Origin: Deltaproteobacteria bacterium
Lineage (GTDB): Bacteria > SAR324 > NAC60-12
Assembly: GCA_002685535.1 (NCBI GenBank)
Contig: NYXK01000186.1
Coordinates: 2,027 to 66,026 of the forward strand
Reading direction: 5' to 3'
DNA length: 64,000 nt
Made by a program: the position numbers and the translations under genes. Under the pieces are notes generated by a model, which was given only the letters and a program-made list of their open reading frames with translations, was not told the DNA's origin and ran no database searches. This document shows positions 6,001 to 43,120 of this stretch, in pieces; within the stretch, counting starts at the first letter, position 1, and each line of letters starts with the position of its first letter.

Positions 6001-7958
6001 GTGGTTGTGATGTTTCGTACTTGTACCTGGAAGAGCACATATACCTTCCCTTTCAAGTGTTGATGCATCAATTCCGGGTTTGATCCTTGGATAGACAGGC
6101 ACAAGAACATTATGGGTGTGTGGATTTGTGGAACCAGATGAGATGCGATGCCAGGTGGATGCACAGACAAAAGGACCCTGGGAGATGATGGCCCTGCTAG
6201 GAACGGAACACAAGATCCAGATCCATACCTGGTAATTAATATTAATATCGCCGTATCTTTGTGTCTCTCGCGTACGTGTGCACTGTTGTAAGGCCATGTG
6301 GAAAGCATGGTTTGTTGTTTGCATGAACTGGTCCTAGCCAGGCCTGTGTCTGTTAATCAAACAACCCGTACCGCGATGATGCTCCTTTCTTGAACGCAAT
6401 TCAGGACTCGCGGCACCAAAGTAGAACAAGCACATGTCGGCCGATGAGTAAAAACGATATCATACGTCCAGTCTGCACCCATATCCTTATCTCTCGTCGC
6501 CATGCCATGCCATGCTTCTTGGTGGTAAGCGAATCCACTTGTATTGGAGCTTCACTTTATCCCCTGTCCCCTTGAAGCCGCTCGCTACGCTACTGCACAT
6601 CCGGGTTGCTTGCCGGGGTGGCTTAGGGTTGGAGTGAGACGACTGAGACTCTGGTCAGAAATGACCCCCAACTTTATCCTGAAGTCCAAACCGCATCAGG
6701 CGAAGTGAAGGCGTTGATATCGACTCTGAAGAAATGGGCGTGGGAGGTCTTGAATGCATTTTGGTTCCGTTGTATCTGTTCTCTTCGGCTCTAGCTTGTG
6801 TCGTTCTGTCCTGCTGGCAGTACCGTCAGGTTGGTATCGGATCAGCGGTGTTCGGTGATGCAGTAGCACTGGTGGCATGCTGGGTGTTGTGCTAGGCTGC
6901 AGAGAGCGGAGCGGAGGACAGCATAGGCTGGACTGGAGTGACAGCGGATCTCGACAGCGGCGGCAATGAGGTCTCGATGGCTGGAATTGAACTGGCCTGG
7001 CCCACCAGACAGGGCTCTCCAGCGAATAAATGCTTACTTCCCGGCCTTGATCACCGAGTCTGTCGCAAAGACTCCACCAATATCGCGGATCTGCCAATCC
7101 TATTATAGCCTGGTCCCTGTACTGGATACTTTACTTTGCTTTCACAGGCTGACTGCTGCTGCTTGCAGCACCGAAGACCGCGTGGGAAAATGCCCTGGCC
7201 TGTCCTGTCCCTTGTTCTGTTCTTCCCCATGAAAGTATCTTCTCCAGTCGGACCCAACCCAACCCTCTTCCACTCTTTCTTGTGTACGGACTTCTCTTCT
7301 TTAGAAACCGCCTGCACTTGACGGCTACCTAATATCAGAAAAACGACAATTAATAATTCCCTAATTCGCTCACTTTAAAAAGCAATTCTTGCCCTTCCTC
7401 ACTCGCTCTAGCTCAGCCGTCTCTTGGCCTAGAACTAATCCTCACCCCTCCATTTCATCCCCATCCCGCAAATACGATACGTCTTCTTTTCCACCGCCAA
7501 AACCGTTACAACCACAATTTGCTTGGCATAAGCAGTACATCTCCCCTATTTGCTTGAGGTTTGTAAATTTACTCATCTAAACATTGTTTGCTGTTACTAT
7601 TGTGGCTCGAGGAAACGTCGGCTAACTCTCGTTCTGGCTCGAAGCTGAACTCGTATCAACACAGCCTCGTCAAGAAAACCACAGCCCTACGACTCGAGTC
7701 TGCCCCACGGTCGTTCCTAACCACGTCAAACCACCTTTCAACGACTGCGATCGAGATCTCTTCTTTTGAAAACAATTAGCAGACCACTGGGCACTGGTTT
7801 TGCTTCTGTCTGCCTCCAAACAACTGTTATTACTTCCGGCGCACTTGAACTATCAAGTTCTCCGAGGGTCTTGCTTCTAGATCGACATTATCACCCTTCG
7901 AGCCGCACCTTCCCTACAACACATGTCCGATCTCTAAGGTCGCCAACACTCCACCAAG

Positions 7959-10580
7959 ATGTCTGGCAGGAGCGCATATGTGCGCAAGGAGAAGACAAAA
8001 ATTAAGACGGAGCGGGACACAGGCGGTGCAGTGAGTAACGATGGAGAGTCCGACAAACAACCCTCCGACAAGGCTCTGTCAATTGGCGACTTTCCTATGC
8101 CACAAGGCCGCCAGCCTCAGTACATGGTGGACGTTCCCTACAGAAGCCAGAACAATGAGATCTCTACAATCAGAACAAATGTTTCCGGTGGCTCGGACGA
8201 CCTTGCATATGCGCGTGTCCGCAAGCCGCAGGTTCCCGTCATTGATGTATCCGGCATTGAGAAGTCGTCATTCAGGACTAAGATGGACAAGCAAAGTGAG
8301 AAAATTCGAGGAGTTCTGACTTTTGGAGGCAAGAAGAAAAAGAAGACTGAAGAGCACCAAAATGATTACAGACCGACTACTGCTGCGACTTATCGTCATG
8401 ATGTTTCTGAGCTGGAGACGGGCGAATACATCCCTCCTGCAGTCCCTCGAAACAGAACACAGCAGTTTGGTGAGCCAGATTTCATGCGCCCTGCCCCACC
8501 AAATGGCAAGCTTCCTGCAATTCCTCAAGGACCACAATTAAAGCGATGGATGGGTAATGGAAGACCTCCGATGCCATGGAACAAGCTTCGAAAGGATCCA
8601 GAGCTTTGGGACCCCAATGGAGATACCCTCATCTTCTTTGGCCACGACACCCATCATGCCTCGAGACCACCACCTTCGTTCAGATTGTCCTCCCATGTTA
8701 TCGAGCAGACCGAGTCCAGATTCCTCATTACTTTACTCCGCGAGGGATCAATTGACGAGGGAAGCAATTTCAGCATGCCACCTTCTCCAATCAGCTCTCC
8801 TGGTATGCGAGCCCCTCATATGGCTCAAGGAGGCCGGCAACGTCACCCAACACCTCCAACATCAGAAGGCAGTATCTCTGGTGGATTTGATGGTCAAATA
8901 TCCTACGAAATCTACTTCCCAGCTCCAATGAATCAGTCCAAGACTGAAACAATTCGCCATCAGGTCACCACTCGAAATGTGTTCGCTCTACTGTATCAAA
9001 CCTCATTAGTTGGTCTGAATCTCTACCAGGCTCTGAGCGATCTACATGATCGTCTTGAGGTCTATATGCCAGATGAGATTGATGCAGCTGGTATGATTAT
9101 TGATTACATTGTTAACAAGGGAATTGATGATGTACGAGAGAACCCATCTGCTGCAGCTGCGCTGCTGGCGTGGAGTGAGAGTTCTTCTGTTCGATGGGAG
9201 GAAGGATGGAAGGAGGCATATGTTCACAGCGCGGGGATGTATCACCGTCTCGAGAGTGCTCCTGATTTCCGCTATGTCACACCGATCACCAGAGCACTTC
9301 TGGAGCGGGCTAGCTTAGAGGTTCAAGTCCGGATCAACAACTGCGAAAATCGCTTCGTCGACTTCGACTTTGGAGATATGTGGCCAATGATGAGTTCTCA
9401 GCCTCCACCTGCTCGAGCTGCCTTTGAGCGCCTGCGGAAGTTCTTCTTACTGCATTACCAGAGCACTTACGAGTCCTGGCCACCACGTCAACCCGAGGGA
9501 CACGAACAATGGCTCACTAGAGGTCTAGCACAGAAGTTGCAGAAGGATTTCGGATCGCTCTACGACTACTTGGTCAATCGAGAAGTTGCTTGGGATTGCT
9601 CAGAGGAAAGAAGTGGTCGAAAGTGGAATATCATGCATCCTACCAACAGAGGTTTTGAGGCTGATTCCCAAGACCTGCCTTTTACGGATATTCTCGTCGC
9701 CTTTGACAACCGTCACAAATTTCCACACATTCCACATCCATACCCACTAGTCCCAGAATCCCAGCCAGTACGAAACGAGTCGAAGGAGAACCTGTTCAAG
9801 TCGAACAAGAAGTCAAATAAGCCTGCTGAGGATAAGATGGCTGAGCGGAAGGCAGCTTTGGCATATACTGAATCAACCAACATCTACCTACTTGGGTCCG
9901 ACTTTGTCAACAACGATCTGGTTGATGCTTTTGTTAGATTTGAGAAGGGAGATCGAGCGGGTGATGTCGATCCATACGCAGCTCGTCGTGGTAGATGGGT
10001 CCTGATCTACGGAATCCTACAAACTCTGGCTTCGGTGTCCGTAGATACTCCCAATCTTCGTTACACGACGGAAGTCTCGTACCACCTGAATCCCCGTCTC
10101 CGAGGTACACCGCCATGGAAGGGAGCGAACCAGAACGTTCAAGAGGCAAGCCACGTCGGTTCCCACTGCTGGACTGTCCGTGATACATGGCAACCCGAGG
10201 CACCAGTCATGATTTCCCGCCGAGGTCAACACTCCCAATCAGTCCGCTCTTCAGCCCCATCCGCAGCATCCAGCGACGCTGGCTCCTCTACCATGCGGTC
10301 CCCAACCCTTCTCAATGCCAGTATCTCTACCAAATCCTCTGGACGCCGTAACAACACCCGCAAGGAGCCAGACGGTATCAGCTACAGCGGCTACGCACCA
10401 GGCATCGAGAAGCTAGACGAATGGCCAATCCGCGAAGAGAGCAGAGAGTATAGGGAGAGAGACGAGCGTCGGGAGTACGGCCACCGCGTTGGTCCGAAGA
10501 ATGACTATGTCATTCCGCCACAGAAGGGTGGTTACACGATCAAGGATTTCGATGAATATAGCTTCGGAGACCGTATTTGA
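7959..10580 (+). CDS. Conserved fungal protein of unknown function (873 aa, single exon)
   Basis: Uninterrupted 2,622-nt ORF starting at a true ATG (7959). Low-complexity Ser/Pro/basic N- and C-terminal parts flank an ordered-looking central region (e.g. RHQVTTRNVFALLYQTSLVGLNLYQALSDLHDRLEVYMPDEIDAAGMIIDYIV). I do not recognise a named domain. Confidence 0.75.
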   Translation: MSGRSAYVRKEKTKIKTERDTGGAVSNDGESDKQPSDKALSIGDFPMPQGRQPQYMVDVPYRSQNNEISTIRTNVSGGSDDLAYARVRKPQVPVIDVSGIEKSSFRTKMDKQSEKIRGVLTFGGKKKKKTEEHQNDYRPTTAATYRHDVSELETGEYIPPAVPRNRTQQFGEPDFMRPAPPNGKLPAIPQGPQLKRWMGNGRPPMPWNKLRKDPELWDPNGDTLIFFGHDTHHASRPPPSFRLSSHVIEQTESRFLITLLREGSIDEGSNFSMPPSPISSPGMRAPHMAQGGRQRHPTPPTSEGSISGGFDGQISYEIYFPAPMNQSKTETIRHQVTTRNVFALLYQTSLVGLNLYQALSDLHDRLEVYMPDEIDAAGMIIDYIVNKGIDDVRENPSAAAALLAWSESSSVRWEEGWKEAYVHSAGMYHRLESAPDFRYVTPITRALLERASLEVQVRINNCENRFVDFDFGDMWPMMSSQPPPARAAFERLRKFFLLHYQSTYESWPPRQPEGHEQWLTRGLAQKLQKDFGSLYDYLVNREVAWDCSEERSGRKWNIMHPTNRGFEADSQDLPFTDILVAFDNRHKFPHIPHPYPLVPESQPVRNESKENLFKSNKKSNKPAEDKMAERKAALAYTESTNIYLLGSDFVNNDLVDAFVRFEKGDRAGDVDPYAARRGRWVLIYGILQTLASVSVDTPNLRYTTEVSYHLNPRLRGTPPWKGANQNVQEASHVGSHCWTVRDTWQPEAPVMISRRGQHSQSVRSSAPSAASSDAGSSTMRSPTLLNASISTKSSGRRNNTRKEPDGISYSGYAPGIEKLDEWPIREESREYRERDERREYGHRVGPKNDYVIPPQKGGYTIKDFDEYSFGDRI

Positions 10581-31847: not shown

Positions 31848-32599
31848 TCAACTTCCACAAGAGACTCTCATCTGCATATTGTATGCTTTCTTCATACTTC
31901 TCAATGGACCTCGGTGCCCTGCTGCGTTAGGGTCCGCCTCGTAGTACCAATCTTTGAACTCTTCAATCCTCGCTTTTGCTTCCTCTTTTGGAAGACTTGA
32001 TTTGGCTATAGTCTTTTCCCAGTCTATGACCTCACCCCATGGACCGGTTGAGGTCTCCACCTTGATACCGTCCAGTTCATTTAGCGATCCCCACATGAAA
32101 TTTGACAGCTCGAAGAACGACGTGATTTGGCGAGCATGAGAGCCTCGTCTGCTCGGTCACTCTCATCTTTCACCGTTTTCAATTCATCCTTGGTCAGTTT
32201 CGTTTTGATGTTGTTGACCATCCAACCCAGATCGCTGATCATTCTCGTGAAAGACCCTTGCCCTTTGATTACTTGCTCGGAGTCAAAACTGTCGGTCATT
32301 CCTATGTCTAACAAGCGCTGAGCCGTCTCCCGGATCGGCGGGAAGCGGTTCTCCTCGTCCGGCAGTATGTCTAGATGGGAGAAATCTGTTGTATCGATTG
32401 CTGCCATGACGTCTTTAAATCTCGCGTCCGAGGGACAATCGAGTAATATAGATCGAGAAGCGTCGGGACGGACGCTTGCGAGCTTGACGTCCAACAAGAA
32501 TGCATAGTATATCCACATACGTTCAAAGCCGTTAGCTAACCCGTCTGCAGATGCAAGTGTCGTCAAGAATAGGACACCGAAAACGATTGGGATCCTCAT
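31848..32599 (-). CDS. Small secreted protein of unknown function, with a frame discontinuity
   Basis: True ATG at 32599 followed by a signal-peptide-like MRIPIVFGVLFLTTLASA. ORF 32081..32599 and ORF 31848..32096 overlap in different frames, and I found no usable GT-AG solution. The downstream frame reads as good coding sequence (FFELSNFMWGSLNELDGIKVETSTGPWGEVIDWEKTIAKSSLPKEEAKARIEEFKDWYYEADPNAAGH). Confidence 0.5.
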
Positions 32600-33155
32600 A
32601 GTCGGACTAGCAATGAATGGTTAGACCGTTCGAAAGGAAGACCACACGACGGTTCATGACTGGATGCAATTTCTGGAATTCAAGTGCTGGATGTCAGGAC
32701 TTACATGGCTTCATGTGACAAAGCAACACCACAGTATTTCCAACATGTACCTCTGGATTCGCGAGACGAGCTTTGACCAGATTTTCCAATGCCTTCTCGC
32801 TAGTTGAGGAAGTATAACTTAAGCAGATCAGCTCCAATGAAGCAGAAGCCTTCTCCGTCGAAAGCTTCCTTGTCATGCTTGGGGAGACGCCGAGTGGTAT
32901 GCAACACTAGCTTCCTATGACCCAGCCCCTGAGCCGCAGATCACAGTAGTACTCTGAACCAACTCGAATCGTTCGCCAAGCTGAAGATATTCCCCGAGAC
33001 ATACCGCACGATACCCATCCCTGTCGACTTACAACCAAACCGATCTTCCTCTTTGATACTTCCGAAAGCACAGCAAGCATGCTGGGAGCCGATGCAGCTA
33101 GCGTGCCTCACCAATCTCCACCAGAACTTCCCGTCGTCCACCGACCCAAAGTTCG

Positions 33156-33815
33156 CTAAATCCCTCCACGATTGACTCGAATTTGCTCCCTCCGAACTCT
33201 CATAATGGCCTCATAGTTATGAATGTTCATTTCCCACTGGGTCCCTTTCTGTACAATACGAATCTCGGGGCACACATACCCAGGCATATCCTTAAAGTTC
33301 ACAATCAAGAGTCTCCGCATGGAACCTATCAGGTTCGCCCGGGCATAGAGAGACTCGGCGGATATTATTTCTAGTCTGGAGAGATTCGCCATGTCCGTAA
33401 ATTCGCCGCGGCACTCCCCATGGAAGTATTCCGCGCTCATACTCTCGACTATCATTTGACGCACGCGGGATTTGTCGAGCTGGCTGAGCTTGCAAAGATC
33501 CCACTCGGTGATATTAATAGTATCGAACTGGAAATTTGTCCACGTCAAGCGCGGATTCGACCCGTTTGTGAATGCAACCACGAAGAATGAGAGAGCTTCC
33601 AAGCGGGCTTCTCGGCAGGTGTGGAGAACAGACGGGACTGGATTGGAAGCGTGAAAGTATTGGAGTGGCCGCGTGAAACTTGTAGGATGATCAGAGCGAA
33701 TGATGAGATTCCTGGGCTCCATGGAAGTGAGGTGTGCTCTCCAGATCTGGATGCGTATCTCTTGCGGCAGGCGCGAGAAGGAGTGAAAGGTGTTCAGGGG
33801 GATGGGGGCTGACAT
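33156..33815 (-). CDS. 2EXR-domain family protein (single exon, 219 aa)
   Basis: The first true ATG at 33815 gives MSAPIPLNTFHSFSRLPQEIRIQIWRAHL, followed by VLHTCREARLEALSFF and FQFDTINI, matching the 2EXR family pattern. The leading 'M' in the track at 33872 is a TTG. Confidence 0.75.
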   Translation of the reverse strand: MSAPIPLNTFHSFSRLPQEIRIQIWRAHLTSMEPRNLIIRSDHPTSFTRPLQYFHASNPVPSVLHTCREARLEALSFFVVAFTNGSNPRLTWTNFQFDTINITEWDLCKLSQLDKSRVRQMIVESMSAEYFHGECRGEFTDMANLSRLEIISAESLYARANLIGSMRRLLIVNFKDMPGYVCPEIRIVQKGTQWEMNIHNYEAIMRVRREQIRVNRGGI

Positions 33816-34746: not shown

Positions 34747-37700
34747 ATGATCCGCCACTGGGACTCCCAACAGTCGCTCTTTTTGACATGTATTCTACTT
34801 GCTTTTGCCTTTCTTGCGAATTCTTCTCATGTACACCACTCTCACCCAAACCAACATAGCCAGCACGAAGAACCGGTTCACCGACCACATTTTAGTAGTC
34901 ATGTCGAGAGAGGACCTCTCGAGATGGTTGGGGAGCTTCTCAGCAATTCCTCCCAGAAATCGACAAGTTGGCTTCTCATTCACATCTTCCGAGGTTAAGA
35001 AAGCTAATCCGCCAACAGTAATACCTTGGGGATCAGAAATGGACATCGTATCCTTCGTTGATAATTTTGTCGGTGGCTGGCTTCGAGATACAAGGCCCAA
35101 CTCAACTCAAGCTGAAATCTCCGATATATTAGCAACAGCAAACCGTGTCAAGCAAGCTTTCCTCGATCCAGACTCCGTATCCTCTCTGATGCCCCCCTCA
35201 ATCACAAGCCCTCCACTGAAGAGCACCGCCAGCTACTTCCACCGCTCTACTCTGAACTCAACCATGACAAACTTAGGTTTCACCAATTCTTCATTGGAAG
35301 AAGCAAGAGCCATTGTTCGCTTGGCCCAAAAAGAAGCCAACGCGAGAAACAAGGATCGGATTGGCAACCCACGCGTGAACAACTACTACGGGAAGGAAAG
35401 TAGCAAGCTTGCGCTCAAGTCTCGGGCTAATGATGCTCAACTACTTGCAATCAACGCCACTGTCGCAGCCGCAGCCGCATTGGTGGCAGAAGCTGATGCG
35501 GCACATTCGAACACAACCGAAAAAGACTACTCTATCCCGATCGAAATCAGTCGCAATGAGCAGCGCAATCTTGAGAAGCGGGCAGGCTCGTACTGGTTAG
35601 AAAATATGAACCATGTCGGGCGAATTCCATTCGGCGGTCCGGATAACGACAACTACCCCGTCTTCCGCAATGTCAAAGACTATGGAGCAGTTGGTAATGG
35701 GAAAGTTGATGACACTGCTGCCATCAACAGAGCAATGACTGATGGAAACCGATGTGGTGCAAAATGTGGGGCTTCTTCTATTAAAGGAGCAGTCGTTTAT
35801 TTCCCAGCTGGCAAGTTTTCACGTCGAGACCCTACCTCATCTATTCTAACCAACAGCTAGGACAATATCTCATTAGCAGTACAATTGAGATGTACTATCA
35901 TACCCAGATGATTGGAGATGTGCGTGTCTCCGTGCGCTGCTCCTTCCCTAGCTAACAATGAGCAGGCAACCCAGCGGCCCATATTGTTGGCAGCAAAGTC
36001 TTTCGTTGGTCTAGGTCCGTAGCAAGCCGAATCCGATCAATTTGATCGTTTTGATGCTGATGATTAGCAGGTCTTCTCTCGTCCGACCACTACACAGGAA
36101 ATGATGGGGGAGCAGAAGAGTGGTATATAAACCAGGTATGAACGAAAGGCTCTATTTGTCTGCCTGAAATGCCGCTTACTGCTCAAAGAACAACTTCTAT
36201 CGACAAGTCCGTAATTTCATTATTGATTTGAGAGATGCAGACATGGTGGACATTGCAGGAATCCATTGGCAAGTGGCACAAGCCACCAGTATCCAAGATG
36301 TATCTTTCTTTGGGTCCAACACAGCTGGCAAGTCGCATATGGGTATATGTAAGCCATCTTAGTCTAGATGGAAGTAGAGGAGCTACTGACATCCCTCCTC
36401 TAGTTGCCGAGAACGGGAGCGGTGGCTTCATGTCGGATCTGACATTTATTGGCGGTGCAATCGGCATGCGATGTAAGAATATTCACTACCTGAAACTTCT
36501 TTGTGTTGATTCTGACTCCAAACACAGGTGGGAACCAGCAATTTACCACACGCAAGTTCGTGTTCTTCCAATGCAAAACTGCAATCGATATGCTCTGGGA
36601 CTGGGGATGGACCTGGAAATCCCTCTATATCTACGGAGCGGACATCGGCATCAAAATGAGCGGCGACTACATAGGTGGCTCTATATTACTTCTCGACTCA
36701 TTCATGTTCTCGACCAATGTCGGAATATCTATCAGCACGCCTCAGGGTAGCTCTGGCACTCAGGAGCAGTTCTCTGTTACACTCGACAACTTGTACCTCG
36801 AGAAAGTCACAACACTCATCGTTGATAAGCCTGCCAGTCTCAGTGTTGCAGGTGGCTCCAGAACAATCGATTCCTGGGTTCTTGGCAAGGTGTACGATGA
36901 AAGCAGTAGTACCTACGGAAAATGGTCTGGCGGCGGACCTGTGTTCCCACTTCATCCTAAAACTGCGTCTCTCACAGATGGAACAGGAGCTTACTTGGAA
37001 CGCTCGAAGCCACAATATGCTGATATTCCTGCTGCGACTTTTATCAATGCCAAAATCACTCTCAAAGGTAAATGAGACACTTTTCATGATCCAGATTTTG
37101 CTCACACAAGTAGGGGATGGCGTTTACGATGATACCTTCGGCTTGAATCTCCTTCTTTCTGTCGCCGCAGGTGCGAACCGCCCTCTCTTCATTCCCATGG
37201 GATCATATATTGTGACAGATACAATAAAGGCAAGCCCCTAAACCAGTTATGTCTTTGGCCCAGTGTATCCAGCTAATGCAAGTAGATCCCACTTGGGAGC
37301 CGAGTAGTTGGTGAGTGCTGGTCCCAAATAGTAGCGCAAGGAACTGTAAGTTCTCCCTCCAGGTCCATAATTGCCGTTCCTTGAAGCTTATCAACATCAA
37401 GGCGTTCACGTTCGTGGACGAACCGCACGTCATGGTCCAAGTTGGGGACGAAGGAGATGCTGGAGTCGTAGAAATTCAGGACTTGTTGTTTACCAGTACG
37501 GCGCCGTCTGCGGGTGACATTTTGATGGAGTGGAATGTTGCACAAACAACGCCGGGCTCAGCGGCCATGTGGGGTAAGAAATGGTGCAGTCAGCCTGAAC
37601 TTTAACTCACGAAACCACAGATAGCCACTTCCGGATCGGTGGAGCGAAGGGATCCAAACTTCAGAGGGAAGACTGCCCGAAGCTAACAGGCAGTGTGAAT

Positions 37701-40023
37701 GGAAGGTGTGTTGCTGGGAGTATGCTTCTTCATTTGACCGCTCGGTCATCAGCCTACATGGAAAATATCTGGGCCTGGGTCTCCGATCACGATATTGATA
37801 GTTCAGAAGATCAGACCCAGATCGACGTATATGTGGCGCGAGGTCAGTCTCGTTCTACTGTCGACAGACTCAATACTTATGCACTTGTCTAGGGGTTCTT
37901 ATTGAAAGTCAAGGGCCGACGTGGCTGTACGGCACATCATCCGAGCATTGTGTGCTCTACCAATATCAACTTTATAATGCCAGAAACACTTTCCTTGGAA
38001 TGGTATACTGCCTTTCAAAATCACTTCTGACAAACAAAAGGCTAATATTCTTTTCAGATACAAACTGAGAGTCCCTACTATCTTCCGGCACCTCAGGCAC
38101 CCGCGCCATTCGCATCGACTGTAAGCTCCGCCGACTCTTTTCTACCTCCTTTCTCAGCTTCAAGTATACTGACCTGGACCTCATGATGACTAGGTTGGGT
38201 TGTTCAATGGCGACCCCGACTTCTCGGATTGCAATGCTGTCACCTCGCCTCATTGTGCAGTTTCGTGGGGACTGAGAGTTGTGGGTTCAGACAACATCCA
38301 CATCTTCGGGGCTGGGCTTTACAACGTTAGTCTATTTCATTATACTCTATCTTTGCTTTTTTCACCTACTTGCTTGCAAGAATGCTGCAATGTTACCCCC
38401 CGACGACTAGTTGTGTCTCACATTTAGCAGTGGTTCCAAGCATATATTCAGCCATGCGTAGACTCGCAAGACTGTGCGCAGCGAGTAGCTCAAGTACTCG
38501 GAAGCAGTGTATGGCTTTACAATCTATACACTATCGGAACAGTGGAAATGATTAACACAATCTCTGGAGCTCCGGTCATAGCTAAGGACAACACAAATAA
38601 GAAAGAGCACCCCTTCACGTCTATTGTCAATGCATGGCTTTTGTCCACTTCCTCCAGGTAAGGTAGCACTTTCATATCACTAGATGACTCTGCTAACCTG
38701 AGGCCAGTGACACAAATGGAGACGATGAGCCATACGAAGACGATCCGCCCTGCACTGGGATATACAGAAACATCACACAAGTCATGGCTGCGGTTGCAAA
38801 CATCCCAGATCATTGTGTCGACAAATATCTGGTGGATGCCCAGATCGCAACGATCAACGATTCGCTTGACAAATATACCGAAACGATTTCCAAAGGCTAT
38901 GACAGCAAGTTCAAGATATACGCCGAGCACATCAAGGAACTTGTTCCACTACAGCTCATAGCCTACATGGCAGGAGCCCAAGCTTCTGGGTTTTTCACCT
39001 GTACTACCACCGAATATCAGCTCTGCTGCGGCAGTACATGTTGCCCGGCTGAAGACCACTGCATATGCCCAGCTGTCCCTTGCAATCCCAGCCAAGATTG
39101 CCAGAAGGGTCTTCAGACGAAGACTGTAAACTGTCCTACCTCGATCCCCCTTGCAACAGACCAAGCTCCTGTCGACAAGATCGCGTACACCTGTACTAAT
39201 ATCGACGGTTTCAAGGCCGATGTCGCGCAGAAGTATGGCATCGACCCTTCCTGGATCGTTTTCGGAGACTATACTGCTCGAATCAACGGGGGATGCTGGC
39301 AATCTAATTGCGATGCAATACAGTCGAGAGTGATTTGGTCCGGTTTTCCAGTCCCTGCTGCTTCTTTCTCAGTACCAGACCCCAAAGATCTCATCAGTGG
39401 CACTTATGATAACACGAGAAATCTGGCAGCCCAATTAACTGGAAAAGAGGAGTGGATAGACGATAACTACGAGGGACTTATGCTGTCTGACCTGGTTGAC
39501 GCATCATCCGTTCCCGCTCTCATGTGAGTTGCCATTGCTGTTTTGAAACTCTTTCCCATTCTTTTAAGTCCTACGTATTCAGAGCTAATTCATCACTCCG
39601 TAACTCAGGACTTACTCTGCGGTAACAAGCATGGACAAAGTGGTGGAAATAGCCAAGGAAATAACAGCAGCCCAAAGAAAGGAGATGATCTTGAACTTCA
39701 TCATGGGTGTCTTGATGTTAATACCAGGCGTTGGCCAAATCGCGGACGCAGCGGGCATGGCAGCGCTGCGCAGTTTCATCAACCTCATAGGAGATATTGG
39801 CAATGCTGCATTGACCATTCACGGAATCGTCGAAGATCCCTCGAGTGCGATTTTCAATCTCTTCGGGGCTTTGATAGGTGGCAGGGGATCCGGAAAGTCG
39901 TTCACCGACGCTGCTGGAGCCCGTCGTGGAATGACGAGCAAGGAACTTGATTCTTTGACGCCTATCAGAGGGGATCTGACCAGGATTTCCAACGTACGAA
40001 CCCTCTGTCTGGCGAAAAAGTAG
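34747..40023 (+). CDS. Glycoside hydrolase family 55 exo/endo-beta-1,3-glucanase fused to a cysteine-rich and hydrophobic glycine-zipper C-terminal extension (about 1,417 aa)
   Basis: GH55 signature blocks appear in order: SYWLENMNHVGRIPFG, VFRNVKDYGAVGNGKVDDTAAINRAM, VVYFPAG|QYLISSTIEMYYHTQMIGD, WYINQ|NNFYRQVRNFIIDL, ENGSGGFMSDLTFIGG, KGDGVYDDT, WDSHFRIGGAKGSKLQ, ENIWAWVSDHDID, SSEHCVLYQYQL and IQTESPYY. Exons are 34829 (or 34747)..35810, 35861..35919, 35966..36014, 36071..36135, 36189..36342, 36404..36472, 36528..37067, 37114..37229, 37286..37345, 37402..37573, 37621..37842, 37893..38002, 38058..38120, 38194..38325, 38428..38657, 38708..39523 and 39609..40023. All phases close. The 5' end is unresolved (see findings). 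Confidence 0.85.
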
Positions 40024-41248: not shown

Positions 41249-43120
41249 ATGATCTCGTCCATGATGTGCTCGTTGTGTGCTTTTCTCTGGATACTTCCTA
41301 CGGTCGTTTTTGGAGGTACACAGCCCAATATGCCATACGTATGTATCCTGTTAGACTTCCGTGGCTCTGCTGCTTCCGAACAGACCGTGAAGTTCAGAGC
41401 TCACGTGCAGTCAATTGAGCAAAAGGCTTCTGTGCCCTCCAATGTCCTAGCTTCTTTCAATGCCACTATAGACATTTTACTAACATTGTTACCTACCATA
41501 GGACAGTACAACGACAAAATATTGTACTTGGTGGTACGATAATTACGAAGGATACAGCTGTGAAGCAATCAGGTCCAGCTTTCTTATTAGTATGGCAGAC
41601 ATGATGCTTTGGAACCCATCTATCACCAGCACCTGTGGGAACTGGAAAGAGCGTTCTTACTGTGTCGAGGTCCATGGTATGCCAACAAGTACCTCAACCA
41701 TCAAACCCACTACAACCAGCACCACATCTAGCACCTCTTCCACTATAGCAACGAGCACGGTAAAACCGCAGTGGTCACCGCTTGGATGTTATTTGGACTC
41801 TACACCACCGACTCTATCAGAGCGGACAAATATCGTGGGTGGAGACAGTGTGATGACGATCGAGGGATGTCAGACTGCTTGTTATTCCAGTGGTTTGATA
41901 TATGCTGGCGTTGAAGCAAAGTCACAATGCTGGTGTGGGGATTATGTTGGAAACGAACTAGCAAACTCAACTGATTGCAATATGCCTTGTGCAGGTAATC
42001 CAGCTCAGATCTGTGGTGGTACCGGGCGCATCAACATATACAAAGGAGTGAACCCAAGTACCAGTACTTCTACATCCACAACATCTTCAGCGACAAAGTC
42101 ATCTAGCACCAGTACTCCGACTTCCACGTCCCCTGTCAGTTTTGATGGATCGTGCGGTCCCTCCTCTCTGCAGAAGGCTACCTGCGCTGGCAGTGCTTTT
42201 GGAAACTGCTGTTCGACATCCGGGCAATGTGGATGGACTCCATCATTTTGTGCGCCGGTTGTTTGCCAAAAGGGCTTTGGTACATGCGACGTTACCGATC
42301 CAATCAGTCCTGATGGGAAATGTGGTGCAGCATCGACCATTGGGGCGACATGCGCTGGTAGTAGTAAGTTCTTTGAGTTCATCAGCTTCCTCCGCTCCAG
42401 TTTCGGAAGGCTTAAGATCTTCTCTCCTTAATTATGTATCCTCCCCACGTTCTAAGGAACGTTCTCGCCTCCTGAATGGGCTGTCTAAACACCAAACTTA
42501 AAATGGCAACGCTAACTATGTGCTGCATACAAGCTTTCGGCCAGTGCTGTTCTGTCAGGGGCAATTGTGGCACTACACTTGACTATTGCGGTACGCCGAA
42601 TGGGTGCCAGACCAAATTCGGTTCCTGTACTCCTGTGAGTACGGATGGGAAATGCGGCTCAGCATCTTCTACGAAAGCATCCTGTGCTGGCAGTACATTT
42701 GGCCAGTGCTGTTCCACAAAGGGAAATTGTGGCGATTCTGCTGAGTTCTGCGCCGTCGCAAATGCGTGTCAGCCTTTGTTTGGAAAGTGTACACCTGTCA
42801 GTACGGATGGCAAGTGTGGCTCAGCATCAACCACGAATGCATCTTGTATCGGCAGTACGTTCGGCAACTGCTGCTCAGTGAAGGGAAATTGTGGGAGCAC
42901 TGCTGCTTTCTGTGCTGTTGCTAATCTATGCCAACCTACCTTTGGCACTTGTCACCCTACGAGTACCGATGGAAAGTGCGGAGCAGCCTCAGCTTCGAAC
43001 GCATCGTGTATTGGTAGCAGCCCTGGGAGCTGCTGCTCAGTGAAAGGGAATTGTGGAAGCACTGCTGCCTTTTGTGCTCTGTCTAATTTATGCCAACCTA
43101 TCTTTGGCACATGTACCTAA
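41249..43120 (+). CDS. Secreted carbohydrate-binding protein: LysM - Ser/Thr linker - WSC - five CBM18 (hevein-like chitin-binding) modules (512 aa)
   Basis: Signal peptide MISSMMCSLCAFLWILPTVVFG. LysM-like block YSCEAIRSSFLISMADMMLWNPSITSTCGNWKERSYCV. WSC block GCYLDS...TIEGCQTACYSSGLIYAGVEAKSQCWCGD...CNMPCAGNPAQICGG. Five 8-Cys units follow of type DGKCG...SCAGSTFGQCCSxxGxCGxxxxFCxxxxCQxxFGxC. Exons are 41249..41338, 41502..42363 and 42534..43120 (donors GTATGT and GTAAGT, branch sites CTAAC and GCTAAC). The second junction restores the repeat consensus CAGS|TFGQCCS. Confidence 0.85.
42632..43117 (+). repeat. Three tandem 162-nt coding repeats (CBM18 units 3-5)
   Basis: Three consecutive 54-codon units (42632..42793, 42794..42955, 42956..43117), each reading P[VT]STDGKCG..ASC.GS..G.CCS.KGNCG....FCA..N.CQP.FG.C. 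They are clearly related at the nucleotide level but carry many substitutions. Confidence 0.85.

Follow-up and report, generated by a model that had tools for sequence, protein, structure and literature searches.

A predicted GH55 glucanase joined to a probable zymocin-type carrier tail in mis-binned Cadophora DNA: an apparent variant of a known fungal toxin cluster

Why should a gene for a family 55 glycoside hydrolase (GH55) run on in frame for some 400 residues beyond the point at which such enzymes end, and what would the added part be for? The question is raised by a 64,000-nucleotide (nt) stretch of contig NYXK01000186.1, hereafter the window, which was deposited as DNA of a deltaproteobacterium. 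An earlier note on this DNA, made from its letters and open reading frames (ORFs), had proposed that the GH55 catalytic domain is spliced to a cysteine-rich, hydrophobic tail of killer-toxin type. Our analysis indicates that 34747..40023 on the plus strand is one gene of 18 exons, with a predicted product of 1428 amino acids (aa), that its tail is homologous to the C-terminal region of toxin-associated chitinases, and that a gamma-toxin homologue lies beside it. The cluster looks like a variant of the zymocin-like toxin clusters already described, with a glucanase as its head, and one that would extend them to the Leotiomycetes.

The gene model was built by mapping the window onto a Cadophora malorum protein, KAG4417015.1, by seed chaining, which gave 19 mismatches in 1348 aa (98.6% identity) and zero stops or frameshifts, the GH55 domain included. 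In order, the predicted protein comprises a signal peptide, a pro-region ending in LEKR (a Kex2-type site), a GH55 beta-1,3-glucanase, an acidic linker, a Cys-rich PF26794 domain and a helical, hydrophobic C-terminal region with a near-terminal Cys. At its N-terminus an n-h-c pattern is visible by eye, and the whole resembles the N-terminus of the orthologue at locus L004 (comparison loci are given by their L numbers). Exon 1 (ATG at 34747) and the 52-nt intron that follows it (34967-35018, with a weak GTTGGC donor) are the least certain part of the model, having been placed by reference to L004 and to a Rhexocercosporidium gene model; since the latter uses this intron, a 25-nt intron or a true frameshift at 34994 was set aside. 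Two other introns, 35811-35860 (GCAAGT) and 37230-37285 (GCAAGC), have GC-AG boundaries, which are needed to match the public protein models.

The GH55 part is complete and is predicted to be an exo-beta-1,3-glucanase. It matches the structures 5m5z (E=1e-182, chain residues 5-745 of 757) and 3eqn (E=2e-169, chain residues 25-755 of 758), and PF12708 is found in it as two stretches (E=1e-83). Each structural alignment comes to within 3-12 residues of the C-terminus of the solved chain and ends approximately 6-18 residues ahead of the junction with the tail; the tail is thus an addition to the GH55 fold, and ordinary GH55 enzymes do stop short of it, as had been supposed. A Pfam scan of the protein found neither GH18 nor LysM. 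With a GH55 head and without these domains, the protein stands outside the chitinase family in the strict sense, and it is the tail alone that is common to both.

At 38657 a phase 2 donor (AG/GTAAGG) closes the last GH55-type exon, whose translation finishes with ...NAWLLSTSS. Retention of the following intron would bring in TAA at 38659-38661 and terminate the protein straight after GH55, so that a reading as two genes had to be excluded by comparison. There is no evidence that this stop reflects regulated alternative splicing, as a GTAA donor in phase 2 gives it anyway. Once spliced, the tail amounts to 410 aa with 16 Cys and includes every segment quoted in the earlier note, and both of the introns by which that note had joined the tail in frame to GH55 are borne out by direct reading, by homologues and by public gene models.

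In six further lineages, the nearest relatives of the tail ORF are likewise found directly 3' of GH55 exons on the same strand (L004/L005, L006, L007 from Halenospora varia, L008/L009, L010 and L011). Five of these (L004, L006, L008, L010 and L011) end GH55 in phase 2 at a GTAA donor in the same position as the window, followed by introns of 48-73 nt with a CTAAC or CTGAC branch and by acceptors that open in frame to the acidic linker, beyond which C-T-x-x-[YF] is conserved, and this in-frame phase 2 junction has been maintained at about 50% sequence divergence. In the Halenospora pseudogene the phase 2 donor was read at the same position, in-frame continuity having been checked only in the other five. 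The Halenospora locus (L007 6440-7170, GCA_020726485.1) is degraded, with in-frame TGA and TAA codons and frameshifts in an AT-rich context that looks like repeat-induced point mutation, and this accounts for the two 'partial' gene models given there. The orthologue at L006 has a one-base frameshift in its last GH55 exon (6600-6650) and may be a decaying copy. At the second splice, intronless homologues run straight across (...SVPAL[LM]T..AV.SM.KVV). Furthermore, the 90%-identity cluster of the window ORF includes two full eukaryotic models, KAG4417015.1 (C. malorum, 1348 aa) and KAH7363931.1 (Rhexocercosporidium sp., 1402 aa), which read LLSTSS followed directly by SDTNGDDEPYEDDPPC and SVPALM followed directly by TYSAVTSMDKVV, the exact junctions of the earlier note. 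Fused GH55-tail proteins are also encoded by Zarea fungicola, Lecanicillium saksenae, Arthrobotrys entomopaga, Colletotrichum chrysophilum, Xylaria acuta and Microdochium bolleyi. No start codon of the tail is conserved across the compared lineages: the first in-frame ATG of the window tail (38784) lies 3' of conserved Cys and hydrophobic positions, the first ATG in L004 and L006 is inside the domain, and in the L011 protein the "M" corresponds to a GTG codon. Nor does the Cys-rich tail carry a separate signal peptide.

What, then, is the tail? Word-indexed protein searches returned 14 relatives each, all with a precomputed PF26794 "LysM11_ab" and none of them fused or GH18 proteins, and the small stand-alone family to which they pointed was overturned by an exhaustive tail-profile search, which matched 1110 cluster representatives at E<=1e-3. 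Heads were counted among proteins with a long N-terminal part in the best 150 of these 1110 matches: 46 had GH18, often with a LysM region, 7 had GH55, and GH71 alpha-1,3-glucanases and GDSL esterases and/or FG-GAP repeats accounted for 8 each. As the profile matches GH18-headed proteins across positions ~3-400, with E down to 1e-129, the whole length of the tail is judged homologous to the C-terminal region of the LysM+GH18 "killer-toxin-like" (C-II) chitinases. At locus L012, GH18 exons are joined to the tail through another phase 2 intron just before the acidic linker; a phase 2 intron flanking the tail in both contexts offers a simple route for swapping heads. (The obvious acceptor at L012 2380-2580 is one base out of frame with the tail, suggestive of an alternative acceptor or an assembly error.) In a rough neighbor-joining tree of the tails, whose branches are long, those linked to GH55, GH71 and FG-GAP fall among the GH18-linked ones, a hint that heads may have been swapped more than once. 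The earlier note had pointed to a similar tail in subgroup-C GH18 chitinases and supposed one catalytic head exchanged for another on a common scaffold; the GH18 matches and the L012 splice bear out the former, and the exchange now extends, beyond what was proposed, to GH71 and GDSL/FG-GAP as well as GH55.

Several features of the tail are conserved. Of the 131 proteins in which the tail extends to the C-terminus, 111 have a Cys no more than 12 residues from the end; in the window it is at position -5 (Cys1424, codon 40006-40008). Tail residues R378/R379 (39925-39930), which lie 32 residues before the C-terminus and form the only dibasic site of the tail, are nearly invariant; a Kex2 cut there, if it happens, would free a 31-residue peptide bearing the Cys. 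All three of the hydrophobic or amphipathic segments that had been described at the C-terminus are present in the second tail exon, yet only one, MILNFIMGVLMLIPGVGQIADAAGMAAL at 39682-39765, is of transmembrane grade (peak Kyte-Doolittle hydropathy, KD, of 1.92), the two others being weaker, Gly/Ala-rich and amphipathic. An AlphaFold2 model of the tail (mean predicted local distance difference test score 74.9) has long helices, a Cys-rich beta core and a helical C-terminal third. A scan of the tail with an older copy of Pfam, which PF26794 postdates, gave nothing useful (DUF4143, E=0.29).

The chitinases that share this tail are associated with toxins. C-II LysM+GH18 chitinases of filamentous fungi are found in nuclear clusters with zymocin-like gamma-toxins and are homologues of the zymocin alpha/beta subunits, and the near-C-terminal Cys of the chitinase pairs with a near-C-terminal Cys of the toxin, corresponding to the beta-gamma disulfide (Heneghan, Salzberg and Wolfe, bioRxiv 10.1101/2024.10.25.620242). 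That survey found no clusters in Leotiomycetes; its non-chitinase cases were one GH71 locus and one 'XynB-like' chimera, with GH55 unmentioned, and many of its clusters had no immunity gene. We therefore built a profile hidden Markov model (HMM) from 13 Tox-P1 sequences published by the same authors and ran it over the ORFs in all six frames of the window and of every locus. A Tox-P1 homologue adjoins the GH55-tail gene, within a few kb (approximately 2-3 kb), in five lineages from three fungal classes (Table 1), and all of these matches carry a signal peptide. In Cadophora the signal peptide MRIPIVFGVLFLTTLASA is followed by DGLANGFER (ASA/DGLANGFER), which places a Glu at mature position 8 of the window/C. 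malorum copy; Arthrobotrys has this Glu-8 too, and a terminal Cys was read in the toxins of C. malorum (...RVSCGS), L004 and L008. The product of 31848-32599 is, by these marks, a Tox-P1-type gamma-toxin homologue and a predicted ribonuclease. Comparison with C. malorum shows that one nt is missing from the window copy, between 32116 and 32115, which leaves it a pseudogene or a truncated gene without its C-terminal third; with the deletion repaired it would be 250 aa long and end ...RVSCGS. As 85 blocks of public assemblies contain exactly the same truncated ORF of 172 aa, the frameshift is real in the strain lineage and not a sequencing error; the neighbouring GH55-tail gene is intact. In the public annotation of C. 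malorum (GCA_017365405.1, L014 6804-8679), the toxin ORF is fused with a 2EXR-family ORF into one 417-aa model, and the toxin is thereby hidden in that proteome.

Table 1. Positions of the GH55-tail gene, its parts, its neighbours and the Tox-P1 matches (window coordinates unless a locus is named)
Feature	Position	Strand	Remarks
Tox-P1-type gamma-toxin gene	31848..32599	-	~2 kb upstream of GH55-tail gene; HMM E=8e-13
2EXR-family gene	33156..33815	-	between toxin and GH55-tail genes; PF20150 E=3.5e-16
Predicted signal peptide	34747..34824	+	MIRHWDSQQSLFLTCILLAFAFLANS; by eye, hydropathy peak KD 1.84 at residue 20
Exons 1-6	34747-34966, 35019-35810, 35861-35919, 35966-36014, 36071-36135, 36189-36348	+	
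Exons 7-12	36404-36472, 36528-37067, 37114-37229, 37286-37345, 37402-37573, 37621-37842	+	
Exons 13-18	37893-38002, 38058-38120, 38194-38325, 38431-38657, 38708-39523, 39609-40023	+	
Pro-region and complete GH55 catalytic region (predicted)	35019..38657	+	15 exons
GH55-tail intron	38658..38707	+	50 nt, phase 2, GCTAAC branch, CAG acceptor; in frame to 38708-39523
Tail exon A	38708..39523	+	acidic linker (38708-38752), long helices, Cys-rich beta core; PF26794 LysM11_ab (precomputed); 15 Cys
Second tail intron	39524..39608	+	85 nt, phase 2, GTGAGT donor overlapping TGA of the ORF, GCTAAT branch, CAG
Tail exon B	39609..40023	+	helical region; TAG at 40021-40023
Secreted carbohydrate-binding protein gene	41502..43120	+	WSC (E=1e-17) and at least 5 chitin-binding type 1 repeats (Chitin_bind_1 E=3.5e-16)
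Tox-P1 HMM match, window	32084-32620	-	E=8e-13
Tox-P1 HMM match, C. malorum orthologue	L014 6807-7577	-	E=3e-16
Tox-P1 HMM match, L004	L004 561-1343	+	E=2e-26
Tox-P1 HMM match, L008	L008 3-830	-	E=3e-28
Tox-P1 HMM match, Arthrobotrys entomopaga	L013 5801-6724	-	E=1e-10
Tox-P1 HMM match, Colletotrichum chrysophilum	L018 7494-8414	-	E=1.6e-12

Based upon these features, the GH55-tail protein is probably the secreted carrier subunit, of alpha/beta type, of a zymocin-like killer toxin in which a GH55 head replaces LysM+GH18. Presumably both proteins would enter the secretory pathway, where the C-terminal Cys of the toxin could form a disulfide with Cys1424 of the tail. Outside the cell, the GH55 head would bind and cut beta-1,3-glucan in the wall of a competitor, upon which the Cys-rich domain and the hydrophobic helical end might engage the membrane and aid entry of the ribonuclease, as has been proposed for the zymocin beta subunit. 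The idea of a delivery scaffold had been put forward in the earlier note, and it is strengthened by the Tox-P1 genes in five lineages, which that note had not seen. In the window strain, whose toxin is frameshifted, the protein may be a carrier remnant or a lone wall-lytic or membrane-active protein.

Several observations weigh against this interpretation. Firstly, the toxin copy in the window is itself frameshifted, a condition that recurs in many assemblies, and no Tox-P1 match was found near L006 or L007, the former being frameshifted and the latter a pseudogene. Secondly, an immunity HMM made from 8 published proteins found nothing over the 64-kb window and all loci (best E=0.56). Thirdly, KR/RR sites are confined to residues 260 and 1396, the GH55-tail boundary having none, and the likeness of the tail to the yeast zymocin alpha/beta precursor is taken from the cited survey (bioRxiv 10.1101/2024.10.25.620242). 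Fourthly, Foldseek found no structure resembling the tail model in the PDB, only generic noise from helical bundles and G protein-coupled receptors (best E=0.22), and the membrane step is therefore conjecture. The splice to the tail is drawn from comparison and from the gene models of other groups, and intron retention would yield a GH55 enzyme of normal length. Lastly, the transmembrane-like segment may do no more than fix the enzyme in the membrane of the producer itself.

The last of these points can be developed into an explanation of its own, in which the tail is a C-terminal membrane anchor that holds a glucanase on the surface of the producer for wall remodelling, with no toxin to deliver. 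The single segment of transmembrane-grade hydrophobicity, the transmembrane element drawn on some chitinase cartoons in the literature (bioRxiv 10.1101/2024.10.25.620242), the failure of the HMM to find an immunity gene in the window or any locus, and a broken toxin gene next to an intact GH55-tail gene in the window strain would all agree with it. We nevertheless regard an anchor as unlikely, since a conserved module of 410 residues and 16 Cys far exceeds what an anchor needs, its terminal Cys is kept by 111 of 131 members, a Tox-P1 gene is adjacent in five lineages of three fungal classes, and the homologous region of zymocin is secreted, according to the literature. There is a similarly small chance that the protein acts as an antifungal effector by itself, the glucanase opening the wall and the Gly/Ala-rich helices damaging the membrane, with the toxin gene linked but not physically coupled. 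Its amphipathic helices, the persistence of the carrier after toxin loss in the window strain and the existence of C-II chitinases that have no toxin neighbour (bioRxiv 10.1101/2024.10.25.620242) are consistent with such a role; a complex is suggested instead by terminal cysteines that match between the partners and by the close linkage of the two, and Foldseek against the PDB gave no fold similarity to known pore formers. Lastly, an ordinary GH55 gene stopping at TAA 38659-38661 beside an independent tail gene starting at ATG 38784 is very improbable even though the unspliced frame terminates at once and both prokaryote-style gene callers and the Halenospora varia annotation give the tail as a separate protein, because that ATG is unconserved and has conserved residues upstream of it, an extracellular-type Cys-rich domain would lack a signal peptide, the in-frame phase 2 junction is kept in L004, L006, L008, L010 and L011 despite ~50% divergence, eukaryotic gene models in at least eight species join both parts, and the Halenospora copy, a pseudogene, is interrupted by in-frame stops; the comparison thus favours one gene over the separate tail gene that the earlier note had named as its own refutation.

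Two other neighbours accompany the carrier and the toxin. The 2EXR-family gene is also linked in L008 (1541-2254) and L004 (~8450-9194), in a different gene order, and lies ~6 kb away in L018 (20302-21060); its connection with the toxin system is uncertain. It was considered as an immunity candidate and rejected, as it has no similarity to the immunity-protein HMM. The WSC/chitin-binding gene, whose first exon probably begins near 41249, is also found 3' of the tail gene in L008 (9045-10607) and L010 (6173-6992), and its product may contribute in trans the kind of wall-binding module that C-II chitinases have within the same chain. A LysM-like stretch at the N-terminus of its product was seen by eye only, unconfirmed by Pfam.

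As to its origin, the window is, on the strength of its sequence, fungal DNA from a Cadophora strain that was mis-binned into a bacterial metagenome-assembled genome (MAG), and the strain would be either very widespread or a contaminant. ORFs identical to 38784-39527 and 36503-37075 have been deposited as 'Deltaproteobacteria bacterium' MAG proteins (MAD86873.1 and MAD86870.1), and the GH55-tail locus is also found in Tara Oceans and many other metagenome assemblies.

How much of this is new? The type of system, the fused gene models, part of the tail (through Pfam) and, noted once in the literature, non-chitinase heads are already known. GH55 heads on zymocin-type carriers are not mentioned in the literature searched, which agrees with the earlier note, whose author had not seen the combination described; fused models are however already in GenBank, unremarked, under the names 'hypothetical protein' (KAG4417015.1) and 'exo-1,3-beta-D-glucanase' (KAH7363931.1).

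Zymocin-type toxins are usually framed as chitinase-delivered ribonucleases. As the same tail and toxin family occur with a glucanase, and as GH71 or esterase heads precede this tail in other proteins, the two jobs appear to be separable: the head need only open or bind a wall polymer, and carriage and import of the toxin should fall to the tail, which stays constant. We would put at somewhat less than even the broader proposition that the module conserved across filamentous fungi for toxin carriage and entry in zymocin-type systems is the ~400-residue tail rather than the chitinase, that its heads (chitinase, beta-1,3-glucanase, alpha-1,3-glucanase or esterase/FG-GAP) are exchangeable cassettes, swapped by exon shuffling at the phase 2 intron and suited to whichever polymer the wall of the victim contains, and that GH55-headed Tox-P1 systems are a distinct group, widespread among Leotiomycetes, Sordariomycetes and Orbiliomycetes, that chitinase-seeded searches have missed. 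If true, searches seeded with GH18 undercount zymocin-type systems, a defined module of ~400 residues would be the candidate for toxin binding and membrane entry, and antifungals could in principle be retargeted by exchanging the head. Of the ~1100 database cluster representatives with the tail, many are mis-split or named 'hypothetical', and at least one toxin gene has been merged into a neighbouring model. For the fungal-toxin field, the interest would lie in having the tail singled out as the constant functional core.

When the window protein is set beside known systems, its counterparts for the head are ordinary fungal GH55 enzymes (PcLam55A, 3EQN; CtLam55, 5M5Z; Trichoderma BGN13.1), with which it has in common a complete double beta-helix, a Kex2-type pro-region and what is predicted to be a signal peptide, and from which it differs by ~410 extra C-terminal residues and a toxin-gene neighbourhood. 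Proteins headed by GH71 or by GDSL/FG-GAP (Aspergillus bombycis XP_022386813.1, Neonectria punicea KAK7414551.1) have the tail and the head-linker-tail layout in common with it and differ in the head, which is an alpha-1,3-glucanase or an SGNH esterase with FG-GAP repeats. The likeness to the Kluyveromyces lactis zymocin alpha/beta precursor (pGKL1 ORF2) and its gamma-toxin is one of proposed logic, in which a secreted hydrolase of wall polysaccharide carries a disulfide-linked ribonuclease on its hydrophobic C-terminal part; K. lactis zymocin is however encoded on a cytoplasmic linear plasmid and uses a different hydrolase family, whereas the window gene is nuclear with 17 introns and, unlike zymocin, its product has no dibasic site at which head and tail would be processed into alpha and beta. 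A further close parallel is with the Pezizomycotina clusters of a C-II chitinase and Tox-P1 to Tox-P9, with or without an immunity gene. These have a LysM/CBM18+GH18 head where the window has GH55, with its chitin-binding modules in a separate neighbouring gene, and the window cluster further differs in that no immunity homologue was found and in belonging to the Leotiomycetes (Cadophora). They are alike in a tail that is homologous over its full length, near-terminal Cys included, in an adjacent Tox-P1-family gene with a signal peptide, Glu-8 and a terminal Cys, and in being nuclear, intron-bearing genes accompanied by a neighbouring gene for carbohydrate-binding modules.

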